Source: a virus | Lineage: Duplodnaviria > Heunggongvirae > Uroviricota > Caudoviricetes | Reading direction: 5' to 3' (one strand) | DNA length: 44,960 nt | Virus record (IMG/VR): IMGVR_UViG_2529292828_000011 | Shown here: piece by piece, positions 27,668-40,210 of the stretch | Layout of the letters: each line of letters opens with the position of its first letter | Numbering within the stretch: the stretch's first letter is position 1 | Program-made: the position numbers and the translations under genes | Notes under the pieces: generated by a model | Told to the model about the DNA's origin: nothing | What the model saw: the letters and a program-made list of their open reading frames with translations, nothing else | Database searches by the model: none

Positions 27668-27742
<75 letters not shown>

Positions 27743-27745
27743 ATA

Positions 27746-27820
<75 letters not shown>

Positions 27821-28014
27821 CATTGGTTCCTCAAGAGAAATAAAAATGACCGCGCTTTATATCCCATTCGGAACCGAAGATGGATATTAATAATGCCGGC
27901 TCTTTTTTCAATAGAAAATCATGTCAATATTCGTAAATATATGTATGTATTTTTATTATTCATGAATTTTAGAAAAATAACATGCGCATTTAACGTACTG
28001 CACCACTTTCCGGA

Positions 28015-28706: not shown

Positions 28707-28987
28707 AACGATAACTCCGTACATTTGGACATTATCGCCACCGTCAGGTGCTAATCATCGTGGTGGCGAACTGTGCGGGGTTAGCACTACCGGGCACGGA
28801 AACCGGCGAGCCTTTCGGCTCCCCCACACAGCCCGCCATAAATCGCGAATATGACTGTGCAAACGATATGAAAAAAGACGCGGGCGCGCCTCATATCGCT
28901 CCGTAAACATCCGGGGTGCTAATCCCGACAACCGATTTTGCGGTTGCGTCGGAAATATAGCCCCGGACAATGTGTCTGGTCAAGCTC

Positions 28988-31611: not shown

Positions 31612-31767
31612 TTACTCCTCAGGTTCGTAAGCTGTGAAGACAGCGACCTCCGTCTGGCCGGTTCGGATTCGTACCTCGCAGAGGTCTTTCCTCGTTACCA
31701 GCGCCGTCACTATGACGGTTAAACAGATGACGATCAGGGCGATTAACATCGCCTTTTGCTGCTTCAT
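31612..31767 (-). CDS. hok: Hok-family type I toxin (HokD/RelF-like), 51 aa
   Basis: Translates to MKQQKAMLIALIVICLTVIVTALVTRKDLCEVRIRTGQTEVAVFTAYEPEE, a canonical Hok sequence; absent from the ORF track because it is under 60 aa. Confidence 0.85.
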   Translation of the reverse strand: MKQQKAMLIALIVICLTVIVTALVTRKDLCEVRIRTGQTEVAVFTAYEPEE

Positions 31768-31979
31768 AGCCCGCTTCTCTTTGACCTTTTGGTCGGTAAG
31801 AGGCTAATCTACGTATGCAAAGTATAGATGTGGCCTCAGATTAATGTTAAGCGTCTTGCAGGACGTGTAATGTTAACTGGGGCTTTTCTCTATCTGCCGT
31901 TGGTGTTCATGCCCGAGGCAGACAGCCTCAAGCACCCGCAGCCATTCTACTTAACTCCCGTTACCTCGCCAATATGAAA

Positions 31980-32069
31980 TCAGTCAGAAAGGCGATCCAT
32001 AAGAATAATGGCAAGACAATAAATCGCCATTACAGCCACAATAGCCAGCGCACATTTGAGAACCAGCAC
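31980..32069 (-). CDS. candidate small hydrophobic peptide (29 aa; type I toxin-like or truncated hok paralogue)
   Basis: GTG start preceded by AGGAGG at 5-nt spacing; encodes MLVLKCALAIVAVMAIYCLAIILMDRLSD. Confidence 0.3.
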   Translation of the reverse strand: MLVLKCALAIVAVMAIYCLAIILMDRLSD

Positions 32070-32247
32070 GGCAACCTCCTGTATAGAACGTACACCTGTC
32101 CTGATAAATATGAGGCTGTCTCGTCAGTGATTCAATACAACTATTGGGTATAGTTTCTGTAATTTTGTTCTGTAGAAATAGAACACAGCAACCAGTCACC
32201 ACCAGCACTTATTTAAATACGCAAAGTCCGGCGCAAGCCAACATTTT

Positions 32248-32275
32248 AGTCCGCTTTGAGCGAGAAGCGGAAGTT
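32248..32275 (+). repeat. left copy of an imperfect direct repeat flanking the 449-aa gene
   Basis: agtccgctttgagcgagaagcggaagtt; 15-bp core tgagcgagaagcgga identical to the right copy; contains inverted arms ccgctt/aagcgg. Confidence 0.6.
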
Positions 32276-32400
32276 CGCGGTTGAAAATAACACCATTAAG
32301 GTTGCGGTTGATTGATGGTGAATAAACGTTATATTAACCCACCCAATAACTCCTATAAAGAGGGAGTCATTGATTCCCTCTGTTATTTTTAAAACGAATA

Positions 32401-33750
32401 TCAAAGATATCTTTCTTCAAAATCCTTTGCTTCACATAGAGCTGGATTTATTCTTGCAATTATTTCTTGGCAATTAGAGATATTATCCTGCAGAGCTTTA
32501 ACAGCCTTTTCTTTAATTTTAGGGATATTATTGAATTTTCCTTTCATCATACCTTCAGCTCCAAATGAACCCCAATTGCCTGCAGCACAGATATGAACAA
32601 TGAGTTCGAAGCAATTTATGTTGTCCATCAAACTGGAGATGTCACCATCGTATGAATTTACACTCTGAGCAAAAGTGTTAGCTTCAGAGAAAGTTGTAGA
32701 TCCGGCCTGCCCAAAAATTGATTGGATGACTTTCTGTCTAGCCCACTCATGCCCTTTTATATTCTTCATCAGCACTGGGCTAAGTTTATATTTTTCAAGA
32801 ACATCATCAATGCTAGATCTAAAGCATCTATCAATAATTTCTCTTTCCAACCCAAGAACACTAATTGCAATCTGTACAGGGTGCCTTAAATAGGTATGCT
32901 GATCGGAGGATTTTGTAGTTGAAATTGTATCCTCAAACATTTTATTTAATCTTAAGTAAACAATATCCTCCATACCTTTTAGCAAATTACCATTGGTTGA
33001 AATACATTCCATTAAACATTGTCTTTTACTTTCATCCGAACTGCACTCAACTAAGAAATGCTTTTTTATTTGCTCAAGAACATCGTTATTTAGTGGTTTA
33101 AAAGATAGGCCTAAAAGATATCTTTTTGCATTAAGTTTTATTTGTTCATTGGCATTGTCTAATGACTCTATGAGTTTTTTCAGGAGGTATGAGTAACCAT
33201 CATGATGAAGATTTTTAACACCCTCATTTACTACGATAGCATGGTCCTGAATATTAGATGTTGGGAATAAGTATGAATTGGTAAGCTTAGATAGGATTTG
33301 GTCGGCAACTTGAGTTGTTGAAAGAACTGGCTTTGAAAGAAATCTATTTATAGTTTCTGAATACACATATCGAGCTTCTTCAGCTGTCGGTTTATGGCCT
33401 GAAGGATGTGCAGCTTTATTTCTGAGAGTTCTTAACACAGTGAGAAAGTCAGCATCAATCTCTGTAATTATTTTTTCAGATTTCAATTTATTAAGCAAAT
33501 CATTTTCGTAAACTTTTTGTTCATCTCTTTTCTTGGATATTTCTGTAAAGATCGCTTTAGCAACTCTATTCGTAGTGGCCATCCCGTCTAACTTTTTGAA
33601 TAAGTCCTCGAAGATGGCAATGAACGAAAGCACTACGCATGCTCGATGAGCACCAGTCATATAGCAAATTAGTGCTTCTCGCATGTATTCTTTAAGCTCA
33701 ACATCCACGATATCACCAATAAGCTCTTCCATATCTCTCAGACTCGACAT
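32401..33750 (-). CDS. orphan 449-aa protein with N-terminal HEPN-like domain (Rx4H motif RNKAAH), candidate abortive-infection/defence protein
   Basis: AT-rich gene with AAGGAG Shine-Dalgarno; N-terminal about 140 aa resemble DUF4145/HEPN-type domains (..LRTLRNKAAHPSGH..); C-terminal 300 aa helical with no recognised domain. Confidence 0.5.
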   Translation of the reverse strand: MSSLRDMEELIGDIVDVELKEYMREALICYMTGAHRACVVLSFIAIFEDLFKKLDGMATTNRVAKAIFTEISKKRDEQKVYENDLLNKLKSEKIITEIDADFLTVLRTLRNKAAHPSGHKPTAEEARYVYSETINRFLSKPVLSTTQVADQILSKLTNSYLFPTSNIQDHAIVVNEGVKNLHHDGYSYLLKKLIESLDNANEQIKLNAKRYLLGLSFKPLNNDVLEQIKKHFLVECSSDESKRQCLMECISTNGNLLKGMEDIVYLRLNKMFEDTISTTKSSDQHTYLRHPVQIAISVLGLEREIIDRCFRSSIDDVLEKYKLSPVLMKNIKGHEWARQKVIQSIFGQAGSTTFSEANTFAQSVNSYDGDISSLMDNINCFELIVHICAAGNWGSFGAEGMMKGKFNNIPKIKEKAVKALQDNISNCQEIIARINPALCEAKDFEERYL

Positions 33751-33849
33751 AATTGCTCCTTTTGTTTAAATTTTATACGAAAACACCTCAAGCAATTAGA
33801 ATGCCTTGCTCATCGTTGATTGGCAACATCCACTTTACAGGCCCACTAA

Positions 33850-33878
33850 AGTGCCGCCATGAGCGAGAAGCGGACGTT
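33850..33878 (+). repeat. right copy of the imperfect direct repeat flanking the 449-aa gene
   Basis: agtgccgccatgagcgagaagcggacgtt; same 15-bp core as the left copy. Confidence 0.6.
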
Positions 33879-34394
33879 TCACTCATAAAGACTGGATTTA
33901 CTATTACATTAAACTCAACAAGACCTGGCCGCACCCACTCAGCGCGATCTTTGCGCGTCCGGCCCGTTTCCGGCACTATTCCCCGTCCGTATTGTGAAAA
34001 AACACCCATGCTAATTTCTGCGCATCTGAATGCCTGCGCACGCGGGTGAATGGCGGGCGGTTTCGGGCAAATGCGGGAATTAAGGGAGGATTTCCGGCAG
34101 TAAACGTGCGAAGTATATTGATAAATCTGTACGTGATTCACGGTTAACAGGTGCGCTGTTTAGTGGGTGAACGTGAGGCGTTAAGCAGCGAGCTTTGTGA
34201 GGCGATAGCGGTTTTTAGAGCCAGCTGCAGGCTCAGGAAAAAATATTCTGTTTTCGGGGCAGACACCGCAAATGACGACATTTTGCGGGGGTCTGCCCTA
34301 TCCTGCATCTCAGCAAAGCGGTGCCCTGTTCCCACCATGAGGTTTACCCGTCGCAGACCGCCGTAAGGTCGCGTTTTCCCATTCCTTTCCGTAC

Positions 34395-34735
34395 AACGGG
34401 TTTCCTTAAAGGTGGTGCGATCCAAGCTTGGCTATATGCACGAACTCCCCGATCCACCCGACTACCACAGCAATTTAGGTAACTGTTCTCTTGATCCCAA
34501 TCTTGACAGGCACGATAAATCGCCAATGGTGGTAACCATTGGTAACTGGTTTTATGGAGCGAGTAAACGCACGAAAGTACAAAGAATTCTTGAAGTGTCG
34601 GCCTAACTACAGATACACTGAAAAGACAGTTTTGGTTACTGCGCTCCGTTAAAGCCAGTTACCACGGTTCAAAAAGTTGGTAGCTCTAAGAACCTTGAAA
34701 AAACACCATTGGTAGCGGTGTTTTTTCTTATCTAG
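34395..34735. other. ColE1-type plasmid replication origin remnant (RNA II body and antisense RNA I region)
   Basis: Collinear similarity, judged by eye, to the pBR322/ColE1 ori region (e.g. gaattcttgaagtgtcggcctaactacagatacactgaaaagacag vs gagttcttgaagtggtggcctaactacggctacactagaaggacag); weaker similarity may extend left to about 34170. Confidence 0.6.
34626..34726 (+). ncRNA. RNA I-like antisense RNA of the ColE1-type origin (possibly a relic)
   Basis: Begins ACAGUUUUGGUUACUGCGCUCCG.. (ColE1 RNA I begins ACAGUAUUUGGUAUCUGCGCUCUG..) and ends in a ..GGUAGCGGUGUUUUUU terminator-like stem. Confidence 0.45.
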
Positions 34736-34778
34736 AGCTGGATACTATCACCACACATAAATTCATTAAGGAAAAAAG

Positions 34779-35249
34779 ATGTCTTCTGGAAGAAGGAAAA
34801 AAACCGAAACACAAAAGAGAAATAATCAAAGCCTTATAGATATTATATCTAGCATAAGTGAGTTTAATAATATAAAAGAATTAGAGAGAGAAGAAGGATT
34901 TGAATTGGTTGCATTTAAATTCAATGAAGTCAATTTAATACTTGAGAAGAGAGTAGCATCTAGAATAATAGTAATGAGACTGATGAACTCTTTTAACACC
35001 AACGCCATGAAAATAGGCAAAGATAAACAATCGCTACTGTCCATTGCTAATAATTTTAATAGAAAATCAATAGGAATAAAATCGACAATAATTGAAGAAG
35101 AACAAACACCATTGATTGTTTTCACAGTAGAAGAGATTGCTGTTGATGAAAAGATGCTCAACTTATCTGGTGATTCGTTAAGAATGCTAGCCGCAATTTT
35201 AGCTGGAGCACCGACATTATTTGAAAAATTAGGAATGGCCAAAGATTAA
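34779..35249 (+). CDS. hypothetical 156-aa basic protein, first gene of an AT-rich two-gene operon
   Basis: ATG with AAGGAAAAAAG upstream; Lys/Arg-rich N-terminus; no recognised domain; followed 9 nt later by the membrane-protein gene. Confidence 0.55.
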   Translation: MSSGRRKKTETQKRNNQSLIDIISSISEFNNIKELEREEGFELVAFKFNEVNLILEKRVASRIIVMRLMNSFNTNAMKIGKDKQSLLSIANNFNRKSIGIKSTIIEEEQTPLIVFTVEEIAVDEKMLNLSGDSLRMLAAILAGAPTLFEKLGMAKD

Positions 35250-35258
35250 GGGATTAGC

Positions 35259-35966
35259 GTGGGCACCGAGATTGAAAACAAACAATTAGAAATCAATACG
35301 CCATCTACTGTAAGTAGCTATACTGCTGAAAAAAATAGTAATTCATCAGTAACTGAGGTCGCTTCAAGTTTTGCTGCGATACTTATTATCGTTGTTATAG
35401 TAGTTTTAATCCTTTGCCTTTTGCAAAAGATGCATGTGGCGATAACACGTTTTTTCGAATTCATAATCTCTGTACCTTGGTATAAAAGAACAGTATTAAT
35501 AGTCATAGGAGCCATATCAACCTACCTAACAACAAAAGTACCAACTTCCTATTCATTCCTTCCTATAATAATAGGTTACATAACCACTTTTGCATTTAAT
35601 GAGTTTGCGTCAAAGAAAGATATAGAGAAAGCAAAAGCGCCTCTTGAAGAGGATATTATAGGAAAAGAAAAAACAATAGTTCTTTTTAGAAGAATAATTG
35701 AGGAAAAGAAAAACATATTCCAAGAAATAATAATTAATCGTATTAATGCTTGTGTGAGGATCACAGGAAAAAACGATAGTGACACCCTAAGAAAGTTGAA
35801 AATAAAGATATGCGAACTACAAGATATTATTTTTGCTGAAAAAACCTTTACCGAAACGCCAGATGAAGCTATTAGAAGATACGAGAATTCAGTATCTGGA
35901 GATGTTGACATGGCAGCACAGACTATGTTTGGTGATAGCAGAAGTGAGCAAGCGACTGCTGCCTAA
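35259..35966 (+). CDS. hypothetical 235-aa membrane protein (three predicted TM helices plus charged C-terminal domain)
   Basis: GTG start with AAGGGA upstream; hydrophobic segments ..FAAILIIVVIVVLILCLL.., ..TVLIVIGAISTYL.., ..FLPIIIGYITTFAF..; C-terminal Lys/Glu-rich region. Confidence 0.55.
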   Translation: MGTEIENKQLEINTPSTVSSYTAEKNSNSSVTEVASSFAAILIIVVIVVLILCLLQKMHVAITRFFEFIISVPWYKRTVLIVIGAISTYLTTKVPTSYSFLPIIIGYITTFAFNEFASKKDIEKAKAPLEEDIIGKEKTIVLFRRIIEEKKNIFQEIIINRINACVRITGKNDSDTLRKLKIKICELQDIIFAEKTFTETPDEAIRRYENSVSGDVDMAAQTMFGDSRSEQATAA

Positions 35967-36187
35967 AAAGATCAATCGGCTTATGTTCATACATTGTAGT
36001 AAAAAGCTTATTTGGTAAAAGCCAATCTACAATAAGAGCATAAGTATGCTAAATATCACTTCAAATGCTCTATGTCTGCGATATTTACCATAACATCTCT
36101 TTCCGGCACCACCTGAGAGGGCCTCAACGAGGTTCTGCTGCTTTTCCTTGTCCGTATCTCGAAAAAACTCCTCAGATGTTCCTGCAT

Positions 36188-36224
36188 GTTTGCCTGATTA
36201 TGCGGTGAGATCTTTTCTACGCGG
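36188..36224. other. second ColE1-ori-like segment (RNA II promoter-proximal region), separated from the main remnant by about 1.46 kb
   Basis: gtttgcctgattatgcggtgagatcttttctacgcgg resembles pBR322 gtttgcaagcagcagattacgcgcag...gatcttttctacgggg, which directly follows the RNA I terminator in ColE1-type plasmids. Confidence 0.45.
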
Positions 36225-36338
36225 ATTAGTGATTACAAATGTTTAAAACGTCCGTTACTGGCACAAAGCGGACAACCACGCTAGCTCAACCCTGTGCCAT
36301 GAAAATGTCAATTCATATCTGAACTAATGCTCTTTAAT

Positions 36339-40152: not shown

Positions 40153-40210
40153 TTTCTGGTGACGTTTGGCGGTATCAGTTTTACTCCGTGACTGCTCTGC
40201 CGCCGTTTTT
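40153..40210 (+). ncRNA. dicF: DicF small RNA
   Basis: tttctggtgacgtttggcggtatcagttttactccgtgactgctctgccgcc followed by gttttt matches E. coli DicF as I recall it; upstream of dicB. Confidence 0.85.

Follow-up and report, generated by a model that had tools for sequence, protein, structure and literature searches.

The window analysed here is a stretch of 44,960 nucleotides in which a gene for a 449-aa protein (RefSeq WP_000096969.1, 'DUF4145 domain-containing protein') lies close to the hokD toxin gene. The gene is carried as a moron by its host element, an E. coli prophage of the lambdoid, Qin-like type. The following features were recorded at the locus:

32401..33750, minus strand: candidate HEPN-HEAT defence gene, from open reading frame and annotation (449 aa plus stop codon, ATG start)
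33756-33761, minus strand: Shine-Dalgarno sequence AAGGAG, 5 nt 5' of the ATG, read from the sequence
32359..32381, no strand given: G+C-rich hairpin with a 10-bp stem, 20 nt past the stop codon, from the terminator scan
32251..32275, plus strand: left copy of an imperfect 25-nt direct repeat, at the junction between prophage and insert
33854..33878, plus strand: right copy of the imperfect 25-nt direct repeat, ~100 nt upstream of the start of the HEPN gene
31612-31767: hokD, ~630 bp from the HEPN gene
31762-31937: sok RNA of hokD

An earlier sequence-only reading had reported the open reading frame without its strand, and what it said about the surroundings was confirmed. The gene is AT-rich (GC content of 0.353 vs 0.513 in the remaining window), is preceded by a strong Shine-Dalgarno sequence, and stands alone, with no same-strand gene in the ~330 bp downstream and ~1 kb of unannotated DNA upstream. 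It is also flanked by imperfect direct repeats, as had been claimed: the two copies are identical at 22 of 25 positions, and their 19-nt core was matched twice where 0.01 matches were expected. Homology with other Qin-like prophages stops at position 32278, and DNA homology to the copies of the HEPN gene in other prophages extends from 32359 to 33769; the hairpin is thus included in the shared DNA. This hairpin, placed on the plus strand by the terminator scan, is likely to be both the terminator of the gene and the 3' edge of a mobile cassette. No minus-strand promoter was called upstream of the gene by a consensus promoter scan, the sole promoter-like element visible there being a −10-like TATAAA.

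An integrated small-plasmid remnant adjoins the HEPN gene. One reading of the direct repeat, as a footprint left when a whole plasmid integrated, is unsupported because the right junction lacks a third copy. Two adjacent plus-strand ORFs (156 aa and 235 aa) were also considered as partners of the gene and rejected, their co-occurrence being limited to the E. coli copies and to plasmid pPA3.0, which has both ORFs and lacks the HEPN gene.

The sequence-only reading had rightly placed the gene next to toxin genes, and the proximity of hokD/sok and of the plasmid remnant would fit a HEPN toxin that does not sense infection but helps to stabilise the prophage or the integrated plasmid as part of an addiction or toxin-antitoxin module, being neutralised by an unrecognised antitoxin (protein or RNA). 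A PD-T7-3-like candidate, ORF5348, was indeed toxic in the absence of phage (PMC10799925). We nevertheless regard such a module as quite improbable. The hokD toxin is backbone prophage cargo and not a functional partner of the HEPN gene, no conserved partner, MNT included, was found across 27 homologue-bearing loci, and a search from 31900 to 36300 revealed no tandem repeats resembling the RNA arrays of type III toxin-antitoxin systems. A simple toxin would also leave a conserved, sensor-like domain of 300 aa unexplained, and both characterised relatives of the protein, DARNA and BxaP, are self-contained and phage-triggered.

The domains and motifs predicted within the protein are as follows:

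33325..33750, minus strand: predicted N-terminal HEPN RNase domain (~aa 1-142, seven helices)
33406..33423, minus strand: predicted catalytic motif R110-N-K-A-A-H115 (Rx4H), followed by P116
32404..33324, minus strand: C-terminal all-helical HEAT/ARM-like repeat domain, predicted sensor (~aa 143-449)
32677..32700, minus strand: motif 1 of the predicted ligand pocket, S351-x-x-F354-x-x-x-N358, aligned with S365/F368/D372 of DARNA
32557..32586, minus strand: motif 2 of the predicted ligand pocket, A389-A390-G391-N392-W393-G394-S395-F396-G397-A398 (AF_1680 consensus AAxxGAxx[FWY]xA)

The RNKAAH sequence from R110 to H115, proposed beforehand as a HEPN signature, is present, and it lies by itself within chance, as shuffled versions of WP_000096969 contained an Rx4H motif in 38% of cases and an Rx4-6H motif in 76%. 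The weight of the motif comes from the complete invariance of R110 and H115, from profile matches and from the fold. Among 128 diverse homologues, R110, H115 and P116 were invariant (100%) and N111 was conserved at 95%; R110 and H115 align with R117 and H122 of DARNA and with R110 and H115 of BxaP. The DUF4145-like context that had been suggested for the motif was borne out by a Pfam match to DUF4145 (PF13643) above the gathering cut-off (26.2 vs 23.1 bits, E 8.4e-6) covering 42 residues (aa 86-127), and the suggested structural check was likewise positive as regards the fold, since the N-terminal region of a monomer model folds as an all-alpha up-down helical bundle matching solved HEPN domains. 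These results indicate that WP_000096969 is very probably a HEPN RNase. The remaining ~300 residues had been described as unrecognised helical sequence: they are helical, and are in fact recognisable as a predicted sensor domain of the HEAT/ARM-like type found in DARNA and BxaP.

The description of the protein as an orphan did not hold, since, besides the RefSeq name, its homologues amounted to 264 matches in 90% clusters and to 738 cluster representatives at E<=1e-3. A precomputed match to PF27235 ('AF_1680') was found for the cluster of the identical protein and for almost every homologue with an identity of at least 33%. DUF4145 and AF_1680 are both families of unknown function, and neither gives a mechanism. 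The PHROGs and NCBIfam profile searches gave no meaningful match, the viral fold library BFVD and a tblastn search of a phage genome collection gave none, and the sole match of a sequence search in a PDB copy lacking the full-length DARNA entries 9tra-9tre was 9wx2 (E 0.08), 'Dandelion-hepn', which is the HEPN domain of DARNA. Literature searches for AF_1680/PF27235, WP_000096969 and 'Dandelion' returned no relevant paper and no published experiment on the protein or its family.

The HEPN gene is under strong purifying selection, with a dN/dS of 0.056-0.066 when compared to homologues that are 84-85% identical, and an intact copy is present in 31 of 5426 complete E. coli genomes. Its relatives in P2/186-like prophages were located by int-CI-CII, between the tail gene S and the baseplate gene V, or following gpD and next to an AIPR protein. 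In P2-like phages, three or more distinct insertion points are used. Relatives in Burkholderia and Vibrio adjoin known defence genes. Among the neighbours seen, an OLD-like ATPase-nuclease adjoins one relative and a SLATT/GTPase conflict system is near another, and a relative from Pectobacterium lies with putAbiC in an ICE-like region. In another Qin-like prophage, the slot between hokD and the replication genes is occupied by AbiH. Some relatives are flanked by housekeeping genes with no defence context, as might be expected if the protein were an accessory RNA-processing or regulatory factor outside immunity, controlling for instance prophage or plasmid transcripts and using its HEAT domain as a protein-protein scaffold. 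Such a role appears very unlikely to us, given the patchy, rare and mobile distribution of the gene, its AT-rich foreign DNA, the presence of Abi, OLD and conflict-system genes among its neighbours, and its homology to two proven defence proteins.

The first of these, DARNA, is the PD-T7-3 system of E. coli ECOR30 (Vassallo et al. 2022, PMC9519451; Puteikiene et al. 2026, 10.64898/2026.02.22.705581), a self-contained, phage-triggered and ssDNA-activated tRNA anticodon nuclease for which abortive infection was proven (bioRxiv 10.64898/2026.02.22.705581). It forms a dodecamer, is activated by ssDNA with 'CT' motifs presented by the phage SSB, and cuts tRNA anticodon loops; in its pocket, F368 stacks on the thymine and D372 bonds the cytosine of the activating ssDNA (10.64898/2026.02.22.705581). 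In DARNA, the two histidines equivalent to H115 and H115' are ~8 Å apart. The DARNA sequence was located by means of a back-translated residue pattern, and 16 of the 16 residues named in the preprint agreed. A search with the published DARNA cloning primers led to the P2-type hotspot but not to the gene itself. Sought by its published residue numbers, DARNA was absent among the homologue matches of WP_000096969, and it was not found in a PADLOC scan of ten distant homologues.

The two proteins are alike in being single chains of ~450 aa with an N-terminal HEPN domain (R-x4-H-P) and a C-terminal HEAT/Pds5-like helical domain, and in being encoded by lone genes in prophage hotspots. Alignment of the AF_1680 and DARNA family profiles with hhalign gave a probability of 99.3% (E 1e-20) over 372 columns (WP_000096969 4-389 vs DARNA 5-400), extended under relaxed settings to 415 columns (3-433 vs 4-446), so that homology to DARNA extends over both domains, the HEPN domain and the Pds5/HEAT-like C-terminus. 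Pairwise identity is just ~17-22%, however, with similarity limited to the HEPN domain, and the site of DARNA is the G/FI hotspot of P2-like phages whereas that of WP_000096969 is the lambdoid hokD/replication slot.

These similarities raise the question of whether WP_000096969 is a true orthologue of DARNA/PD-T7-3, assembling into a dodecamer, responding to SSB-presented 'CT' ssDNA and cleaving tRNA anticodon loops as published. In line with this, the PADLOC PD-T7-3 model matches the protein, the family profiles align as given above, length and two-domain architecture are equal, and two pocket aromatics are shared (F354 corresponds to F368, and aromatic 396 to Y405). The PADLOC match was weak, however (53.9 bits, E 4.2e-15), and covered only 68% of the profile (5-298 of 432; aa 6-282), while in reciprocal searches neither protein found the other among the best 120-150 matches. 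The families are also separate in sequence, PF27235 matching AF_1680 and not the DARNA family. Furthermore, the DARNA occluding loop 81-85 (NPxSP) is 3 residues shorter in WP_000096969 (Q78-K79), and the RNA-binding residues of DARNA are not conserved (R98 falls in a gap, K69 is replaced by A66 and K201 by Y188); K204 has a counterpart in K191, but this lysine is not conserved in the AF_1680 family. Similarly, the dodecamer residues F6/N33/E347 correspond to R5/T32/H334, none of which is conserved in AF_1680. Autoinhibition and oligomeric state may therefore differ and, as most of the proven residues of DARNA are not conserved, its trigger and regulation are not simply transferable to WP_000096969.

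The pocket residues point in the same direction. The Ser-x-x-Phe that opens the ssDNA-binding helix of DARNA is conserved, together with one more aromatic residue, whereas D372 is replaced by N358, each residue being 95% fixed within its own family: motif 1 has S in 93%, an aromatic in 97% and N in 95% of the AF_1680 family, and D in 95% of the DARNA family. Motif 2 aligns with the ssDNA-reading segment N401-N402-Q403-x-Y405-W406-R407 of DARNA, but shares none of its residues except the aromatic character of position 396 (F/W/Y in 88% of the AF_1680 family). Two residues that do not vary in the DARNA family, Q403 and R407, are thereby lost together with the NNQ motif (Q403 corresponds to N392, W406 to G397, and R407 to A398), and the 'CT'-reading set of DARNA (F368, D372, N402, Q403, Y405, W406, and N408) is not matched overall in WP_000096969. 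Given the change of the cytosine-contacting Asp to Asn and the replacement of the thymine-reading NNQxYWR, a ligand or base specificity other than the 'CT' of DARNA is predicted, and we consider strict orthology unlikely.

The second characterised relative, BxaP (ORF376), comes from an Akkermansia muciniphila MAG and was shown to defend against T4 on its own, in an Abi-type manner (Duan et al. 2024, PMC10799925). It shares with WP_000096969 a DUF4145-type HEPN N-terminus and a HEAT-like C-terminus, and the first 190 residues of the two proteins share their numbering (R110, H115, P116, and P121). Comparison of the AF_1680 and BxaP families by hhalign gave 98.0% (E 2.7e-13) over 400 columns (WP_000096969 1-424 vs BxaP 1-411), and BLASTP showed 22% identity across 190 aa without gaps. 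The P121A mutation weakens defence by BxaP (PMC10799925); the same proline is P121 in WP_000096969, and this position is occupied by P in 67% of the AF_1680 family and by A in 25%. At the pocket, BxaP has S-x-x-W-x-x-x-N at motif 1 and AAEGxAxSA at motif 2, both of which resemble AF_1680. In contrast, overall identity is ~16-22%, BxaP is longer (500 aa vs 449 aa, with ~90 extra aa at its C-terminus), and its gene is embedded within BREX type 3 or type I R-M loci and is not a lone prophage moron like that of WP_000096969; no BREX or R-M neighbours were seen in the relative loci that we examined. Compared directly, DARNA and BxaP are alignable in the HEPN domain only, and the AF_1680 family links both. 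AF_1680 is a sister family of DARNA and BxaP and a member of neither. The wider HEPN-HEAT superfamily also includes proteins of 500-550 aa in which the shared part is limited to the N-terminal ~200 residues.

RAZR (PD-T7-4), which combines a zinc finger with a DUF4145/HEPN RNase whose catalytic R and H are essential (PMC13017515), is by its description also a single-protein abortive-infection system of E. coli with a divergent, DUF4145-type HEPN effector. It differs, again by description, in having an N-terminal zinc finger, a C-terminal HEPN domain and no HEAT-like domain, and in being activated by assembly around phage ring proteins.

The earlier proposal of a single-gene abortive-infection effector is thus supported by the near full-length homology to DARNA and BxaP and by the lack of a conserved partner, which make the gene a plausible candidate for this role. 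Being distantly related to two single-protein anti-phage systems that are proven, DARNA/PD-T7-3 and BxaP, WP_000096969 would represent an interesting variant and not a new kind of system. The comparisons suggest that it probably functions in anti-phage defence, and there are good grounds, if slightly less firm ones, for predicting that it does so as a stand-alone abortive-infection protein of the HEPN-HEAT type. It is likely a phage-triggered HEPN RNase with a ligand specificity unlike that of DARNA. Nucleic-acid-activated cleavage of tRNA specifically, predicted by analogy, is a reading to which we give somewhat less than even weight.

By homology to DARNA, the protein would be latent before infection. 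Upon infection, the distal C-terminal pocket (S351/F354/N358 and aromatic 396) would capture an infection-specific ligand, most likely an exposed single-stranded nucleic acid as presented by the phage SSB. Binding may then activate a HEPN site built across a dimer, and host RNA, most likely the anticodon loops of tRNAs, would be cut, leading to a halt of translation and to aborted infection.

A more tentative proposal is that AF_1680 is a natural variant of the DARNA sensor with a changed specificity, forming a graded series with DARNA and BxaP and reading a different signature, maybe with a different oligomer or mode of autoinhibition. In this variant, the stacking aromatics of the pocket are kept and the base-reading residues swapped, so that a different nucleic-acid signature would be read. 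The ligand could be, for example, another ssDNA dinucleotide, RNA, modified bases, or even something other than a nucleic acid. Because the ssDNA contacts of DARNA are known residue by residue, the Asp-to-Asn switch and the replaced motif 2 offer a concrete test of how specificity is set. The changes in the AF_1680 pocket also hint at a possible trigger of BxaP, which would become predictable if the variant reading is true.

At the level of annotation, 'DUF4145 domain-containing protein' could be replaced by 'DARNA/BxaP-like HEPN defence protein (predicted)'. The location of the gene, together with that of AbiH in another strain, identifies the slot from hokD to replication in Qin-like prophages as a hotspot for defence genes. 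Finally, with its 738 cluster representatives, AF_1680 would be a widespread addition to the abortive-infection systems that consist of a single HEPN-HEAT protein, as far as can be predicted from homology.

The window protein corresponds to RefSeq WP_000096969.1 ("DUF4145 domain-containing protein") and was found in 31 of 5426 complete E. coli genomes, being at least 99.9% identical in 29 of the 31. The Pfam DUF4145 model matched aa 86-127 with 26.2 bits (cut-off 23.1), and the DUF4145/HEPN assignment of the sequence-only reading was thus supported by profile search. The same reading had described the protein as an orphan, which was not borne out: 264 matches were obtained among 90% clusters and 738 representatives among 50% clusters at E ≤ 1e-3, including 102 at E ≤ 1e-30, in Enterobacterales, Vibrio, Burkholderia, Psychrobacter, and others. 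Close and mid-distance homologues carry a precomputed match to Pfam PF27235 (AF_1680). When 128 diverse full-length members were aligned, E8, E25, Y30, E82, R110, H115, P116, E124, and R127 proved invariant and, with a dN/dS of about 0.06 against homologues 84-85% identical, the gene bears the signature of purifying selection.

The following features were located in and around the gene.

32401..33750, minus strand: HEPN gene, ATG start, 449 aa
33406-33423, minus strand: codons of RNKAAH (R110-H115) within this ORF
32251-32275 and 33854-33878: 25-nt imperfect direct repeat bracketing the gene, 22/25 identical
34627-34729, plus strand: ColE1-type RNAI antisense RNA (Rfam, 68.4 bits, cut-off 47)
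34779-35249, plus strand: AT-rich 156-aa ORF, 80-83% identity common to plasmid pPA3.0
35259-35966, plus strand: AT-rich 235-aa ORF with one clear hydrophobic segment (aa 34-55), 80-83% identity with pPA3.0
27671-27821, 28759-28947, 31762-31937, and 40154-40205: further Rfam matches (two tRNAs, C4 antisense RNA, isrK, sok, and DicF)

An AAGGAG precedes the ATG by 5 nt, the GC content of the gene is 35.3% vs. 51.3% in the remaining window, and hokD, with its antitoxin RNA sok, is about 630 bp away. The ORF, its RNKAAH motif, strong Shine-Dalgarno, AT-richness, flanking repeats, and toxin neighbour, all noticed from the sequence alone, therefore stood up to the ORF, GC, repeat, and hokD checks. 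Because 38% of shuffled versions of the protein contain an Rx4H, this motif by itself proves little, and the weight comes from homologues, profiles, and structure. The 19-nt core of the direct repeat gave two matches where 0.01 were expected, and no third copy of the 25-nt repeat was found. Within the repeat there is a small hairpin, which in the left copy reads CCGCTT-N8-AAGCGG. This left copy belongs to the prophage backbone and sits exactly where homology to other prophages stops; the right copy falls between the HEPN gene and plasmid-like DNA. Could this repeat be a recombination footprint?

The AlphaFold model was confident (pLDDT 94.1, pTM 0.78) and all-helical, showing a HEPN fold with the invariant catalytic dyad. 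The C-terminal ~300 residues, previously considered unrecognised, resemble HEAT/ARM repeat proteins such as MMS19, SCC2, and condensin Ycg1, in agreement with Foldseek; this repeat domain is conserved and contains a conserved distal pocket.

PD-T7-3 (Vassallo 2022, PMC9519451), since renamed DARNA (preprint 10.64898/2026.02.22.705581), is an abortive-infection protein composed of a HEPN domain spanning aa 1-159 (R117x4H122) and a C-terminal domain resembling Pds5. [quoted passage not shown] To recover its sequence, we converted seven published residues back into a DNA pattern and scanned IMG/VR with it; every one of the 16 residues that the preprint names was matched. The recovered gene (locus L005, 4818-6185, minus strand) sits in a P2-like hotspot between tail-fibre-assembly and tail-sheath genes. 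PDB entry 9wx2_A, "Dandelion-hepn" (163 aa), matches the DARNA N-terminal HEPN domain over the aligned stretch shown, and DARNA seems to have a third name from another group.

That the window protein is an exact DARNA orthologue might be proposed from the PADLOC PD-T7-3 model, which matches it (E 4.2e-15) over aa 6-282 only. The catalytic residues, R117/H122 in DARNA and R110/H115 in AF_1680, are invariant in both families. Pairwise identity was 22%, in the HEPN domain only. Family-family comparison with hhalign gave 99.3% (E 1e-20) over 372 columns (window protein 4-389, DARNA 5-400), or 415 columns under relaxed settings, and the C-terminal domains are therefore homologous as well. In the DARNA pocket, F368 stacks on T and D372 bonds C (10.64898/2026.02.22.705581). 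The first pocket motif, S365-x-x-F368-x-x-x-D372, reads S351-x-x-F354-x-x-x-N358 in AF_1680; the Ser and the aromatic residue are retained, whereas the Asp (95% in the DARNA family) is replaced by Asn (95% in AF_1680). The second, N401-N402-Q403-x-Y405-W406-R407 with invariant Q and R, is AAxxGAxx[FWY]xA in AF_1680, keeping one aromatic residue only (F396). The DARNA loop occluding the active site (81-85, NPxSP) is three residues shorter in AF_1680, RNA-binding R98 falls in a gap, and neither RNA-binding K201 and K204 nor the dodecamer residues F6, N33, and E347 are conserved. On these alignments, exact orthology is less well supported, and AF_1680 is best described as a sister family of DARNA with the same architecture, probably sharing its working principle; oligomerisation and autoinhibition possibly differ.

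Another relative, likewise validated, is BxaP, in which DUF4145 is joined to a HEAT-like domain; it protects against T4 in Abi fashion, and the P121A mutation impairs it (PMC10799925). Its first 190 residues align without gaps to the window protein, with identical numbering of R110, H115, P116, and P121. AF_1680 and BxaP aligned over 400 columns (98.0%, E 2.7e-13), whereas the DARNA and BxaP families aligned over the N-terminal 188 columns only (94.2%, E 1e-7); AF_1680 therefore bridges the two. In BxaP the pocket motifs are S-x-x-W-x-x-x-N, with Asn as in AF_1680, and AAEGxAxSA, similar to that of AF_1680.

Among 27 loci carrying homologues, no neighbour was conserved across contexts. The settings included:

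beside int-CI-CII in P2/186-like prophages
between tail protein S and baseplate V
L013, 6769-8433: following gpD, adjoining an AIPR protein
adjoining UmuC
L029, 4815-6587: Burkholderia, beside an OLD-like TOPRIM ATPase and a SymE-like gene
L030, 5888-10767: Vibrio, near a SLATT/GAP1/DO-GTPase/GASH conflict system
L033, 2034-3386: Pectobacterium ICE-like region with MobA, TraD, a shufflon, and putAbiC

Full-length relatives were also found on plasmids, and the gene is mobile as a single gene. A non-immune RNA regulator could be imagined for those homologues standing alone amid housekeeping genes; the AIPR, OLD-like ATPase, SLATT/GAP1/DO-GTPase/GASH, and putAbiC neighbours are known or candidate defence genes, and this explanation is less well supported than abortive infection. 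The same is true of an addiction toxin, which the proximity of hokD might evoke: no MNT partner was present in the homologue loci, and a search for an RNA-antitoxin-like repeat array found none. Klebsiella, Enterobacter, and Bacillus plasmids encode proteins in which only the N-terminal ~200 residues are held in common with AF_1680, the C-termini being different. Many proteins (P0222-P0263, of 500-550 aa, and plasmid matches H99-H114) resemble the family in no more than the N-terminal ~200-280 residues (HEPN and first repeats) and continue into longer, different C-termini, which suggests that sensor domains may be swapped modularly on one HEPN effector.

A Qin-like lambdoid prophage, residing at the rspB/ynfA locus of E. 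coli, makes up the window; in it, the HEPN gene is flanked by a replication module (DUF977, O-like) and hokD-rem-DUF968-RusA-Q. Homology to other Qin-like prophages breaks off at 32278 and returns at 36247, so that 32279-36246 represents a foreign, AT-rich insert of 3.97 kb, composed of the HEPN gene and a plasmid remnant. Since the equivalent slot in a Qin-like prophage of E. coli 10035210-2 (L002, 4546-6935) is occupied by an AbiH-family gene together with a 463-aa hypothetical protein, the hokD-to-DUF977 slot is variable and of defence type, behaving like a defence hotspot of these prophages. Positions 33938-36141 match nearly all of pPA3.0, a 2.9-kb circular plasmid of Pantoea agglomerans, at ~82% identity, except for a partial deletion of the ori region; as RNAI lies inside this stretch, a small ColE1-like plasmid appears to have integrated directly adjoining the HEPN gene. 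RefSeq annotates no CDS in the ~1 kb separating the HEPN gene from its next neighbour (33751-34778; GC 0.475, higher), and part of this stretch is a degraded plasmid ori; ORFs of 117 and 93 aa there look spurious. The 156-aa and 235-aa ORFs gave no informative match in Pfam, PADLOC, PHROG, or NCBIfam and were ruled out as partners, since no other HEPN-gene homologue is accompanied by them.

Homology to two proven Abi proteins, the HEPN fold, and single-gene mobility support the proposal of a single-gene Abi effector. The protein would be latent before infection. Ligand binding to the C-terminal pocket would release the HEPN RNase, the likeliest ligand being exposed single-stranded nucleic acid, and host RNA, probably tRNA, would then be cut, aborting infection. 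As the base-reading residues differ from those of DARNA, we expect a specificity other than "CT". The window protein is, by predicted function, a divergent, uncharacterised newcomer to an already known system type, which existing defence-finder models already touch, and it is chiefly of value as a natural pocket variant that links DARNA with BxaP.
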